Translations under genes and position numbers: made by a program
Notes under the pieces: model-generated
The model's input: the letters and a program-made list of their open reading frames with translations, nothing else
Databases searched by the model: none
What the model was told of the DNA's origin: nothing
Shown here: piece after piece, positions 37,900 through 41,544 of the stretch
Numbering within the stretch: position 1 is the stretch's first letter
How the letters are laid out: the number at the start of each line of letters is the position of its first letter
DNA from: Phycisphaerae bacterium
GTDB lineage: Bacteria; Planctomycetota; Phycisphaerae; UBA1845; Fen-1342
Direction of reading: 5' to 3'
Length of the DNA: 64,000 nt
NCBI GenBank assembly: GCA_050115495.1
Contig: JASFQK010000024.1
Span: forward strand, 1 to 64,000

Positions 37900-38361
37900 A
37901 TGATTGCCCCCACCCAACGAGCCGTCGCACTCCGCACGCCCAGCCAGCGCTGGTTCGGGCGGCGCAGCGGCGTGGTCGCGTGGGTGATTCTGGCGTTCGC
38001 GCTCGTTCACCCGGCGCACGGCCTGGGCTTACCGATTTGCATGTGGCGGGCGGCGGCCGACGTGCCCTGCCCCGGATGCGGGATGGCCCGCAGCTTGAGC
38101 TGCACGCTGCGCGGCGACATCACACAGGCGTGTGCATATCACCCGTTCGGCCCGATCTTCGCCGGGCTGTTCGTGGTCATGGGCGTGGTGGGGTACCTGC
38201 CGGAATCCGCCCGCGGGCGCTTCATGGCGTGCCTGGACCGTCATGGCAGGTGGACAACAGCCGCCTACGTCACGCTCATCGGCGCGTTCCTGGTGTTCGG
38301 AGCGGTCCGGGCCCTGGTGGCGTTCGGCCACAACCTCGCCGGCGGCGCGCCGTGCGGCTGA
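37900..38361 (+). CDS. DUF2752 family membrane protein
   Basis: C.WR....PCPGCGM.RS...GD...A..YHP motif. Confidence 0.85.
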   Translation: MIAPTQRAVALRTPSQRWFGRRSGVVAWVILAFALVHPAHGLGLPICMWRAAADVPCPGCGMARSLSCTLRGDITQACAYHPFGPIFAGLFVVMGVVGYLPESARGRFMACLDRHGRWTTAAYVTLIGAFLVFGAVRALVAFGHNLAGGAPCG

Positions 38362-38371
38362 CGGCGTTCGT

Positions 38372-39019
38372 CTACCGCCGCCGCAGCAGTCCCAACCCAG
38401 CGGCGAGCACGAGGACCGGGCTCGTCGGCTCGGGGACTGGGGTCGCCGACACGGTGAACTGGAACGCGTCCATACCATCTATGGATTCGAAAAACGGCAT
38501 GGGCACGGTCATCGTGTTACCGTCCACGCGCAGCAGCCACTGCGTGCCGACCGGCGGGCCGCCCTCGACACCGTCGGGAACACTGATCAGTTCGAGCGTG
38601 TACACCCAGTCGGCCGGCGGCTTGTAGTAGCTGTCGGCGCGGATGGAGAAGTACATCGTGTCTTCAAGCTCTGAACCCGGTTCGGCCCAGACGTGGATGG
38701 GCCCCCAGGTCTTGGAGTCGCCGGGGTCCATCTTGGCCTTGTGGTCGGTCCGATAAAATCCGGTCGGCCCGGTCCATTCCGGCGGGTTAAACTCGTGGTA
38801 GATGGACGCATGCCCGTCGCCGGTGAGCTCGTCCGGCCAATCGAGCTGGTCGTCCCAGTCGTCCGTGGCGTCGGACCTGACGCCGAACTGGTGCATGGTT
38901 CAGCCGCAACCGGGGCCGTAGTCGTAGAAGAAGCGGAATTGCTCGGCATCGGCGGCGGCCGGTTCGTTCAAGGCCGTCGCCGCCACGATCAGGCCCAGTG
39001 CCCAGACCCAGCGCTGCAT
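38372..39019 (-). CDS. PEP-CTERM exported protein with in-frame UGA at codon 40 (candidate selenoprotein, 215 aa)
   Basis: GGAG RBS + ATG 39019, signal peptide MQRWVWALGLIVAATA, ...YGPGCG-TGA(38900-38902)-TMHQF... in the same frame, ending VPEPTSPVLVLAAGLGLLRRR. Confidence 0.75.
38855..38891 (-). promoter_or_regulatory. Candidate bacterial SECIS element
   Basis: mRNA after UGA: ACCAUGCA-CCAGU-UC-GGCGUC-AGGUCC-GACGCC-ACGGACG-ACUGG; perfect 6-bp upper stem, loop starts after 21 nt with G at loop position 2. Confidence 0.6.
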
Positions 39020-39331
39020 TCTGTAGCTCCGCACCGCCCCGCTGCCACTTGTCACCGACGCCAGCCGGCCCACTGCGGCGCGCAGATCATCCCTGCAACT
39101 CGTTCGAGCGAAAGGGATTACCCAGCGCACTTCCAGTCTCCGGCCCCAACCGACTCGCCGCTGGGTCGATTCTACTGAAACACGTGTCTCAAAACAACCC
39201 AGAGCCACCGGGCCGTGGAACGGTATGCGGAATCGGGCGCGGTATGCGAGGCACGATGTCGCTGCCCCCCTGCCCATCCTGGCCGGTCCGTATAGAATGC
39301 CCACAGGCGCCAGCAGGAGGTATGACTGCGG

Positions 39332-40138
39332 ATGTTGCCGGGTCGCCGTGTGGGCGGATTCACGTTGATCGAGCTGCTCGTCGTCGTCGCGATTATCGCG
39401 GTGCTGCTGGCGATTCTGCTGCCGTCGCTCGCTCATGCGCGGGCCGCGGCCCGGGTCGCCGTCTGCGCGAGCAATCTGCGGCAGCTCGGGGCGGCCGTTC
39501 ACGTTTACGCGAACAACAACGACGGGCTCATTCCCCGCGGGCCGGACGGAGCACACCCCTACGACATCACCGGCAACCAGATGGCCACGAACCAGTTGTG
39601 GATCGGCTCCGGCACCGCCCCGCCGCCCACCGTCCCGCACATGTACCAGGGTCTCGGCCCCCTGCTGAAAACCACCTGCCCCGAAGCGCGAGCCTTCTTC
39701 TGCCCGGCGGACGGCAAGCAGAACCTGCAACAGGAGCTGCCCAAGATCGGCACCGACGAGGACGCCTACGGTTCGTACCTGTATCGCCAGCTCGACCAGT
39801 TGCCCGAGGGCTACGAACGCGGTTTGCTCGACACGCTCGGCGAGAACATCGTCGACGAGGTCGCGATCCCCGTGGAAACCCTGGCCTTCGACATGAACAG
39901 CTTCGGTCCCGAGCCGTATTATCAGGCCAACCACGACGGGCTCGTCGTCAACGTGCTGTACCGCGACGGCTCGGTTCGGCGATTCGCCATGCGCGACGAC
40001 TGCCTGGCGATCCCGCTCGAAGCCTTCTTCTCGCCGACGGGGATCTTCACCGCGCTCGACCAGATCCTGGTTAACGCGGACTACGCCTACCGCACGGGCC
40101 GGCCCGCCGAAGCGCCGCGCCTGGAGACCGTCAAATAG
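39332..40138 (+). CDS. Prepilin-type N-terminal cleavage/methylation protein (DUF1559-like)
   Basis: [43 protein letters not shown]...NVLYRDG. Confidence 0.9.
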
Positions 40139-40149
40139 GATCCTTAGCC

Positions 40150-41544
40150 TTGCCTACGACGCCTGCGATCGCGCTGAACCCGCCGAATTGGGGGACGTGG
40201 CGGCCGTGCCTTGCCGCCGGGATTGTCGCCGCTTGTCTCCTGGCCGCTGTCGCCGACGCGCAGCCGCCACAACCGCTCGACCCGATGTGGACGTGGCAGC
40301 CGTCGGAAGGCGTCGAATGGGTGGAGGCGGTGCCGGGTTCGGAGCCGCCGTTGATGCTCGTGGCGGCGGGCGACGCGAAGCTGTACATCTTCGCCGTCAA
40401 CCAGGCCCCGCAGCGGCTGCCGGCGTTCGTGCAGGCACGGGCCGGCGTGCGACCGGTGCCCTATGCACCGGAAGCGGTTCCGGCCACCACGACGACCACG
40501 CAGCCCGCCGCGAGCAGACAGCTCATGTACTGCACCGACCGGCTGGCCGCCTACGCCCTGCGGCCCGGCCAGCCGGTGAAGCTCCAGTGGCAGGCCGGAA
40601 GCTGGCGCGAGGACTTGGCCGAGCCGATCGAAGGCGTAACCACTCCCGAAGACGTGTTCCAGGGCGACCCGGAGCAATTGCCGCGAATCGTCGACGCGGC
40701 CGGAACCGGTTACGGCCTGCTACTCCTCCGCGATGACGGGCTGTTCGGGTTGCTCGACCGCGACGACGGGCACGTCCGCTGGAAACACCAACTCCCGCCT
40801 ACGACCGCCGCTGAGCTGCATTTCTGCTGCGACCGCGTGGCGCTGCTGCGGCAGGAAGGGGCCAACGCGGCGGCGGCGTTCGTCGATTCGTCCGCGGGAA
40901 CGCTCACGGACATTCCGATTCCGCCGGAGACGCCGTGGCCGCTCTGGAGCGAATTGACGAAAGACGGCCTGCTGCTGGCGCAGCCGACGAGCATCATGTT
41001 GTACACGGCGGCGGGCGGGCGGCGGCTGTTCGAGACGAGCGAAGAGGCGGCGGTGCTGGCCCGCACGCTTCACGTGCACCGCGGGAACCTCCTGCTGTTC
41101 GGCACGAACGACGGGCAATTGCACGCACTGGACGTGTCCGCCGGCCGGGAGCTGTGGGCCACCATCGATCACCCGGATCGGCGGGCCGGCTGGGATCTGC
41201 TGCGGGCGCAGGGCGACGAGCTGTTCAGCGGTGCGGGGCGGCTGCTGGTCTGCCGCGACGTGGAGAGCGGGAAGAGACGGGCGCGGTTCGCCGGACGGGG
41301 CGGCGCCCGCCTGCTGGACGTGCGTCAGCGAAGTGAGGCGCTCTGGCTGGTCTGGGGGGCGGCCGGCGTGAACGGGGAACGACTGCTGCTGGAGCGGCTG
41401 GGCTGGACGGCAACGCCGACGCCGAAGTTCGAGCAGCGGGTGTTCGGGTTGGGTCAGATCGCGCAGCTCCGCAGTCTGGTGTGGATCGAGGATCGATTGG
41501 TGGTCGCCGGCGGCGATGGGCTGTCCGTGTTCCCCCTGCGCTGA
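40150..41544 (+). CDS. Exported PQQ-like beta-propeller repeat protein
   Basis: Signal-like N-terminus; LDRDDGHVRW, ALDVSAGRELW, CRDVESGK repeats. Start uncertain. Confidence 0.65.
   Translation: MPTTPAIALNPPNWGTWRPCLAAGIVAACLLAAVADAQPPQPLDPMWTWQPSEGVEWVEAVPGSEPPLMLVAAGDAKLYIFAVNQAPQRLPAFVQARAGVRPVPYAPEAVPATTTTTQPAASRQLMYCTDRLAAYALRPGQPVKLQWQAGSWREDLAEPIEGVTTPEDVFQGDPEQLPRIVDAAGTGYGLLLLRDDGLFGLLDRDDGHVRWKHQLPPTTAAELHFCCDRVALLRQEGANAAAAFVDSSAGTLTDIPIPPETPWPLWSELTKDGLLLAQPTSIMLYTAAGGRRLFETSEEAAVLARTLHVHRGNLLLFGTNDGQLHALDVSAGRELWATIDHPDRRAGWDLLRAQGDELFSGAGRLLVCRDVESGKRRARFAGRGGARLLDVRQRSEALWLVWGAAGVNGERLLLERLGWTATPTPKFEQRVFGLGQIAQLRSLVWIEDRLVVAGGDGLSVFPLR

Follow-up and report, generated by a model that had tools for sequence, protein, structure and literature searches.

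The 64,000-nucleotide stretch analysed here (the window), which covers positions 1 to 64,000 of the forward strand of contig JASFQK010000024.1 in the GenBank assembly GCA_050115495.1 of a Phycisphaerae bacterium, carries on its minus strand a gene for a small secreted protein that appears to be interrupted by an in-frame TGA. This apparent stop is almost certainly a conserved selenocysteine (Sec) codon with its own RNA hairpin signal, as judged from the comparison of homologous loci, and we consider it very probable that the gene encodes a selenoprotein with export and sorting signals. Reading of the UGA as selenocysteine had been proposed in a preliminary description of this DNA and is supported by the conservation of the TGA, by the occurrence of Sec and Cys forms at the same site, by a covarying hairpin and by the selenocysteine machinery of the genome. 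The locus would then be one intact gene for a secreted selenoprotein, and neither a broken gene nor two genes. Its features, all on the minus strand, are the following.

38372 to 39019, minus strand: complete predicted selenoprotein gene, 215 codons, one of which is the Sec codon, followed by the TAG stop at 38372-38374 (translated with TGA as U).
39027 to 39030, minus strand: putative Shine-Dalgarno-like motif GGAG, 7 nt before the ATG, read from the sequence.
38945 to 39019, minus strand: putative Sec-type signal peptide, residues 1 to about 25 (MQRWVWALGLIVAATALNEPAAADA), from direct reading, with a presumed cleavage site.
38438 to 38938, minus strand: all-beta (sandwich-like) core domain, residues ~28-194, in an AlphaFold2 model that places C-G-U in the turn joining strands one and two.
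38906 to 38908, minus strand: codon of Cys38, the partner of Sec40 in the C-G-U motif and an invariant column of the homolog alignment (A1).
38900 to 38902, minus strand: UGA read as selenocysteine (predicted), residue 40; TGA in 41 and Cys in 7 of 48 informative homologous places, with Sec machinery in the genome.
38867 to 38884, minus strand: predicted bacterial selenocysteine insertion sequence (SECIS) hairpin, with a 6-bp stem GGCGUC/GACGCC and the loop A-GGUC-C, 15 nt past the UGA, minimum free energy (MFE) -9.8 kcal/mol.
38375 to 38437, minus strand: PEP-CTERM sorting tail made of VPEP, a hydrophobic helix and RRR (TIGR02595, 16.0 bits).

Translation from the ATG at 39019-39017 gave 39 codons (MQRWVW...YGPGCG; the frame encodes MQRWVWALGLIVAATALNEPAAADAEQFRFFYDYGPGCG) followed by the TGA at 38900-38902, after which the same frame remains open for 175 more codons down to the TAG at 38374-38372 and ends in VPEPTSPVLVLAAGLGLLRRR. 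Retranslation confirmed the open reading frame (ORF) of the preliminary description, led by a putative ribosome binding site and carrying a putative signal peptide, an in-frame TGA and the 175-codon continuation; the PEP-CTERM tail that it had placed at the C-terminus was borne out by TIGR02595 (16.0 bits for a cut-off of 16 bits). The n-, h- and c-regions of the signal peptide were recognised by eye, with neither a lipobox Cys nor a twin-arginine motif. All 15 aligned homologs have a basic residue and then a hydrophobic stretch at their N-terminus, and purine-rich motifs are likewise found upstream of the starts chosen for them. The possibility that the TGA is an assembly error, raised in the same description, was ruled out by a second, low-depth assembly from another sample and study (run X2), which reproduces positions 38775-38925 including the TGA with zero differences, and by the TGA in 35 other genomes. 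The first sequencing run matching the locus may be the source of this DNA and was not counted as independent.

When the read-through protein was searched against six-frame translations of 60 related genomes, 15 further places were detected. Eleven of these have a single in-frame TGA, which invariably falls on the same codon of the alignment, as C-G-U or C-U, approximately 10-15 residues past the signal peptide; three other homologs have C-G-C at the site. The homologs align end to end with the window protein, across the TGA. Their identity to it is just 30-45%, and the TGA has therefore been maintained through a long divergence. A profile search of the whole order (279 genomes) identified 50 places in 43 genomes, with TGA at 41 of them (36 genomes, the source genome counted), Cys at seven and two cut by contig ends. 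The seven non-TGA forms are all Cys forms, with the motifs C-G-C, C-T-C or C-G-H-C. The residue at the aligned site is only Sec or Cys in the 48 informative places and is never Trp or any other, which was the comparison that the preliminary description had suggested for residue 40. A Cys always precedes the Sec/Cys site by one or two residues, and six homologs have an adjacent C-U with Gly, Ser or Ala before it. An unrooted maximum-likelihood tree was built from 45 rows, 38 of them Sec and 7 Cys, after exclusion of two fragments of less than 120 residues. The Cys forms are dispersed among the Sec forms in this tree, on which seven changes of the Sec/Cys label are needed, and at least four of these changes are forced by well-supported branches. 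As the tree is unrooted, the direction from Sec to Cys was taken solely from the 38:7 majority. None of 400 genomes sampled from the phylum beyond the order matched at E <= 1e-8 (6 candidates scored per genome).

The hairpin GGCGUC-AGGUCC-GACGCC noted in the preliminary description was found at 38884-38867. The 40 intact Sec forms all have an invariant GGUC loop and a G+C-rich stem of 6-7 bp. The distance from the UGA to the start of this stem is 15 nt in 39 forms; the remaining one, which has a 2-residue insertion, has 21 nt. In an alignment of 12 Sec forms, 92.9% of the cells pair, versus 81.4 +/- 2.0% after shuffling (0 of 500 shuffles reached the observed value); controls with slid partners paired in 30-50% of the cells. 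Compensatory changes on both sides were detected at four of the seven stem pairs, the covariation score was 0.439 versus 0.221, with none of 500 shuffles as high, and six of the stem pairs were independently predicted by RNAalifold. The conserved, covarying hairpin that the preliminary description had expected in homologs is thus present, with its invariant GGUC and four of seven pairs compensatory. In the seven Cys forms pairing occurs at just 3-5 of the seven positions, and GGUC is missing in six of them. The lower stem described together with the hairpin (CCAGU at 38891-38887 and ACUGG at 38859-38855) is present in the sequence but is not conserved, as 45% of its cells paired versus 43-44% when slid by one column, and 43 of 500 shuffles reached the observed percentage.

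According to the excerpts of PMC13188914 used here, the bacterial SECIS model (bSECIS) has a loop of 3-9 nt, a stem of 4-16 bp, a G in the first two loop positions, a distance of 16-37 nt from the UGA and an MFE <= -7.5. Set against these published values, the hairpin falls within each of them, with a loop of 4-6 nt, G at the first or second position, a stem of 6-7 bp, a distance of 21-22 nt from the UGA and -9.8 kcal/mol; the mean over 27 hairpins was -9.2 kcal/mol, and 22 of these were at or below -7.5. By the standard bacterial SECIS mechanism, the hairpin in the mRNA (38884-38867) would recruit SelB, which together with Sec-tRNA(Sec) would read the UGA at 38900-38902 as selenocysteine during translation. 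No Rfam family matched positions 38700-39100 at E <= 1. A genome-wide pattern scan for UGA followed by a GGUC hairpin was dropped, as its 211 matches were mostly noise in this G+C-rich genome.

The loop sequence GGUC occupies the codons xGG-UCx and therefore imposes the dipeptide Trp/Arg-Ser, which is found in all Sec forms, in 12 of the 14 database representatives that begin right after the site because of truncated gene calls and in none of the 11 C-x-C representatives present in the wider sequence library. The compensatory stem changes alter amino acids (Val/Ala/Thr on one side, Asp/Gly/Asn/Ser on the other), which is the pattern that an RNA constraint overriding the peptide would give. The family would offer a clear natural case of protein sequence being dictated by an RNA signal, where GGUC forces Trp/Arg-Ser and the dipeptide goes with the hairpin upon replacement of Sec by Cys (with Trp-Ser still in the Cys form of genome G079).

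Three loci among the homologs deserve separate mention. The Cys form of G079 (C15:257115-257753, locus L069) retains Trp-Ser and GGTC with a stem that pairs at only three of seven positions, and looks like a recent Sec-to-Cys replacement with its SECIS in decay. A second copy in genome G156 (C58:9693-10208, locus L081) has kept the TGA, and an in-frame TAG replaces the Ser codon of the loop, so that its ORF ends early; this copy looks as if it were decaying. In genome G093 (C26:49282-50848, loci L057 and L071) a Sec form (C-U) and a Cys paralog (C-G-H-C) lie in tandem and might be a selenium-dependent isoform pair.

The source genome (5.97 Mb in 85 contigs, with the window on contig 24) encodes the full set of selA, selB, selC and selD, and the search for this machinery and for an exosortase that had been put forward as a check in the preliminary description was positive for every component. 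The selA and selB genes (532 and 302 bits, respectively) contain no internal TGA. The gene for tRNA-SeC, with anticodon TCA, is located on the same contig (C24:83297-83391), ~44 kb from the selenoprotein gene and ~19 kb past the end of the window. The selD gene (C36:5956-6891, locus L010) itself codes for a selenoprotein with an in-frame TGA (...KAAG-U-AAK...), and a hairpin GCGCAG-GUA-CUGCGU with GGUA in its loop region begins 27 nt past that UGA. An exosortase (PF09721, 168 bits) is encoded on contig 7 (C7:122169-122921).

Several observations weigh against parts of this interpretation. Folded alone, positions 38840-38915 gave -25.8 kcal/mol compared to -25.92 +/- 3.21 kcal/mol for shuffled sequences (z 0.04), and support for the hairpin rests on the comparison of homologs because the single-sequence fold is no better than shuffles. 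Part of the hairpin conservation could reflect selection on the peptide G-V-[WR]-S-x-A-T, an account that is countered, though not at every single base, by the loss of the hairpin in Cys forms. The co-occurrence of selA with the TGA forms is non-discriminating, because selA is present in 34 of the 36 genomes with TGA forms versus 236 of the 279 genomes across the order, and two genomes with TGA forms, G081 and G199 (87% and 74% complete, respectively), have no selA match. The TIGR02595 score of the tail lies exactly at the cut-off, no RNA run carrying the locus was found among the sequencing runs listed, and the gene neighbourhoods of the homologs proved to be unconserved, with no operon partner in common. 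As for fold and function, the structural search with VIA-align found no significant neighbour (best Z 5.0, the level of common beta sandwiches), and the cytochrome fusion described below occurs in 4 of ~48 homologs, the functional reading resting on this fusion and on analogy.

The core of the protein was confidently modelled with AlphaFold2 from a 15-sequence alignment as an all-beta domain of ~165 residues (predicted local distance difference test 86.4, predicted template modelling score 0.79), in which strands 28-34 and 43-47 flank the turn with C38-G-U40. The 14 residues before the TGA are conserved in frame, with the pattern F-x-F-x-F-A-F-G-x-x-C-G. The core domain had no match at E <= 1 in Pfam and NCBIfam, where the PEP-CTERM tail alone was recognised, and Foldseek found nothing in the PDB at E <= 0.001. 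A profile search of 1.84 billion representatives detected 319 relatives at E <= 0.001, 71 of them at E <= 1e-30, the nearest being C-x-C forms or proteins that start directly past the Sec site. Remoter full-length relatives lack both cysteines, so that this clade would have added the reactive motif to an extracellular beta module that already existed, and the beta domain is probably a scaffold or binding module that gained a reactive hairpin in this clade.

The C-termini vary, being mostly PEP-CTERM tails, with dockerin in several and a PKD-like domain plus another membrane anchor in one. Compared to protein clusters, a Cys-form homolog matched solely clusters of 'hypothetical protein', in which PEP-CTERM is found in 62% of the members. 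In four genomes (G152, G155, G156 and G158) the Sec domain is followed by dockerin (Dockerin_1) and a multihaem cytochrome c region of ~380 residues, which matches Cytochrome_C554, Paired_CXXCH_1 and Cytochrome_C7 and contains ~9 CxxCH motifs counted by eye.

The biochemical role is probably extracytoplasmic redox chemistry, as far as it can be read from these sequences. After export through the signal peptide and cleavage, the protein would be handled by the exosortase, and its PEP-CTERM tail would anchor it to the surface of the cell or within the exopolysaccharide layer. In the mature protein, Cys38-Gly-Sec40 would lie ~13-15 residues from the N-terminus, at the tip of the first beta-hairpin, where Cys38 and Sec40 may switch between the selenol/thiol and selenenylsulfide states, or coordinate a soft metal, outside the cytoplasm. 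Such a redox or soft-metal site is proposed because of the alternation of Sec with Cys only, the constant upstream Cys and the cytochrome fusion in four genomes; the fusions suggest electron transfer in particular. Animal thioredoxin reductase has a Gly-Cys-Sec-Gly redox tail, and C-G-C and C-x-C are disulfide-exchange motifs. The likeness to that tail, an exposed Cys adjacent to or one residue from Sec that could form a selenenylsulfide, is a chemical resemblance only, as thioredoxin reductase is an unrelated protein with another location and another fold. We assign a redox-catalytic role, as opposed to a structural or metal-binding one, a little over half of the very high probability given to the selenoprotein as such.

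The alternative that survives best, and that we regard as a real but clearly lesser possibility, accepts a genuine selenoprotein in which Cys-x-Sec is structural or metal-binding, for instance a trap for soft metals or metalloids or a cross-link between molecules of a surface fibre. The two cysteines are dispensable for the fold, given the wider domain family that lacks both of them, the C-termini are anchoring modules (PEP-CTERM, dockerin, PKD), and the weak structural neighbours are pilins and fibre subunits (CfaB, CooA, TasA and archaeal cannulae, with Z 3.9-4.6). These structural matches are, however, at noise level, the fusion to multihaem cytochromes fits electron transfer better, and Sec is catalytic in most known families, at least in the parts of the reviews used here.

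A more far-reaching form of the redox-catalytic reading, which we consider possible but rather doubtful, is that this is the first selenoprotein family sorted outside the cell by exosortase or dockerin and that Cys-x-Sec is the terminal site of a cytochrome-fed extracellular electron-transfer chain. If so, multihaem cytochromes would feed the chain, fused to the selenoprotein in some species and separate from it in this one, and wetland planctomycetes would have a selenium redox activity at their cell surface; in the exopolymer layer this activity may reduce, for example, sulfur or selenium species, metalloids or peroxides. Multihaem cytochrome c genes are present in the source genome at C4:93074-107906 (loci L084-L086), with domains that resemble the C-terminal part of the UshA-like PCGU model discussed below; these cytochromes are possible redox partners of the selenoprotein.

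The remaining alternatives concern the TGA itself. Read-through of the UGA without Sec, by a near-cognate Trp or Cys tRNA or in a reassigned code, with a hairpin that only stimulates it, appears very improbable to us. Hairpins 3' of stop codons can generally promote read-through, but the substitution is solely Cys in seven of seven non-TGA forms and the loop shows G-G-U, as bacterial SECIS elements do, at the distance expected from the literature excerpts; the SECIS of the genome's own selD likewise has a GGU-containing loop. The lack of internal TGA codons in selA and selB argues against a reassigned code.

We likewise give little credit to the idea that two products are made, a secreted 39-aa peptide and a separate 174-aa protein from the ATG at 38896, one codon past the TGA. 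This ORF of 174 aa does exist as an entry in the protein collection (P0152), and a 178-aa homolog is annotated in the same way. The downstream Met is nevertheless not conserved, being replaced by QSH, SAG, GST or VAG in homologs, and the 174-aa product would have a sorting tail without a signal peptide; the 14 residues ahead of the TGA are conserved in frame, and the Cys forms are single uninterrupted ORFs. Weakest of all is a recent nonsense mutation in a pseudogene whose translation would stop once 39 residues have been made. In its favour, TGA serves as a normal stop in other genes, several homologs terminate in TGA and the G156:C58 paralog with its extra in-frame TAG does look decayed, but this explanation is contradicted by comparative data, namely TGA at one codon in 41 places of 36 genomes, at 30-45% identity and with the frame intact on either side, an alternative residue that is always Cys and a covarying hairpin downstream of the TGA.

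Compared to known systems and judged by its sequence, the selenoprotein has a canonical recoding mechanism and a protein family that appears to be new. It shares the in-frame UGA, the downstream stem-loop, selA, selB, selC and selD and the Cys homologs with the bacterial genes that contain a SECIS within their ORF, for which the E. coli formate dehydrogenases are the reference, whereas the protein is unrelated to any listed family and its loop is strictly GGUC in 40 of 40 members. No literature joining SelB, SECIS and GGUC was found for the CAGGUC sequence that the preliminary description gives for fdhF. Signal peptide (by eye), PEP motif, hydrophobic helix, Arg cluster and exosortase are common to this system and the PEP-CTERM/exosortase substrates (TIGR02595, PF07589). 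Full-text searches for a PEP-CTERM protein or exosortase substrate named as a selenoprotein found none and gave unrelated papers only.

Among C-x-U selenoproteins, the thioredoxin-fold and rhodanese families (PF13192, NF041203, NF041072) differ from the window protein, which had no match to them at E <= 1 and has an all-beta model. The UshA-like (seleno)protein NF041198 ('UshA_like_PCGU') is, in the excerpt of PMC2398784 used here, a C-x-U family first reported from ocean metagenomes, and it has the Cys-Gly-Sec motif in common with our protein. The multihaem region of the long homologs matches positions 400-510 of the 519 positions of this model (115-122 bits, E 1e-33 to 1e-35), a score that is far under the 275-bit cut-off and covers only their cytochrome part. 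The window protein itself had no match to NF041198 at E <= 1 and has no 5'-nucleotidase/metallophosphatase domain, and full-length UshA-like PCGU members were found neither in the source genome nor in 80 relatives.

In the part of a 2026 review used here, prokaryotic selenoprotein families are set out in a table, each with its Pfam, NCBIfam or CDD model; the C-x-U entries are rhodanese form 3, UshA-like, ferredoxin-thioredoxin reductase and Trx-like Sec.1. The new family is missing from this table, and neither 'PEP-CTERM' nor 'Planctomycet' occurs in that part of the review. The portions of the deep-Sep and BSepDB papers used contain neither term. As far as this table and these portions go, the family appears to be unlisted; Table S9 of PMC4807772 gives one 'hypothetical' Sec candidate from a planctomycete. 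The apparent absence of the family agrees with the statement in the preliminary description that it is not a described selenoprotein family, as it has no Pfam or NCBIfam model and no entry in the table as excerpted.

Public annotation gives this gene as a 174-aa protein, and the closest named relative is a 178-aa 'PEP-CTERM sorting domain-containing protein [Phycisphaerae bacterium]'; both entries are truncated at the Sec codon. The annotation of these genes would be wrong in that it yields N-terminally truncated proteins of 174-178 aa, with a sorting tail and no signal peptide. The bacterial selenoproteome would gain a well-supported family with 40 intact Sec forms, spread over 36 genomes of an order represented here by 279. 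Selenocysteine would be placed in a protein that is predicted to be anchored outside the cell by exosortase and that is fused to multihaem cytochromes in some species, which points to extracytoplasmic selenium redox chemistry in Planctomycetota.

The genes around the selenoprotein gene in the window code for a DUF2752 protein, a zinc-ribbon membrane protein, a DUF1559 prepilin-type protein and a BamB-like protein, three of which are located as follows.

37900 to 38358, plus strand: DUF2752 membrane protein with a CPGCG motif, convergent, ending within ~10 bases of the selenoprotein stop codon.
39332 to 40135, plus strand: prepilin-type N-methylation/DUF1559 protein, divergent neighbour.
40150 to 41541, plus strand: BamB/PQQ-like beta-propeller protein, divergent neighbour.

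A downstream neighbour apparently shared between homologs was rejected, as it is the antisense of the housekeeping RsgA GTPase gene. The pair of DUF1559 and BamB-like genes is also found beside the homolog in G005, a genome of the same genus.

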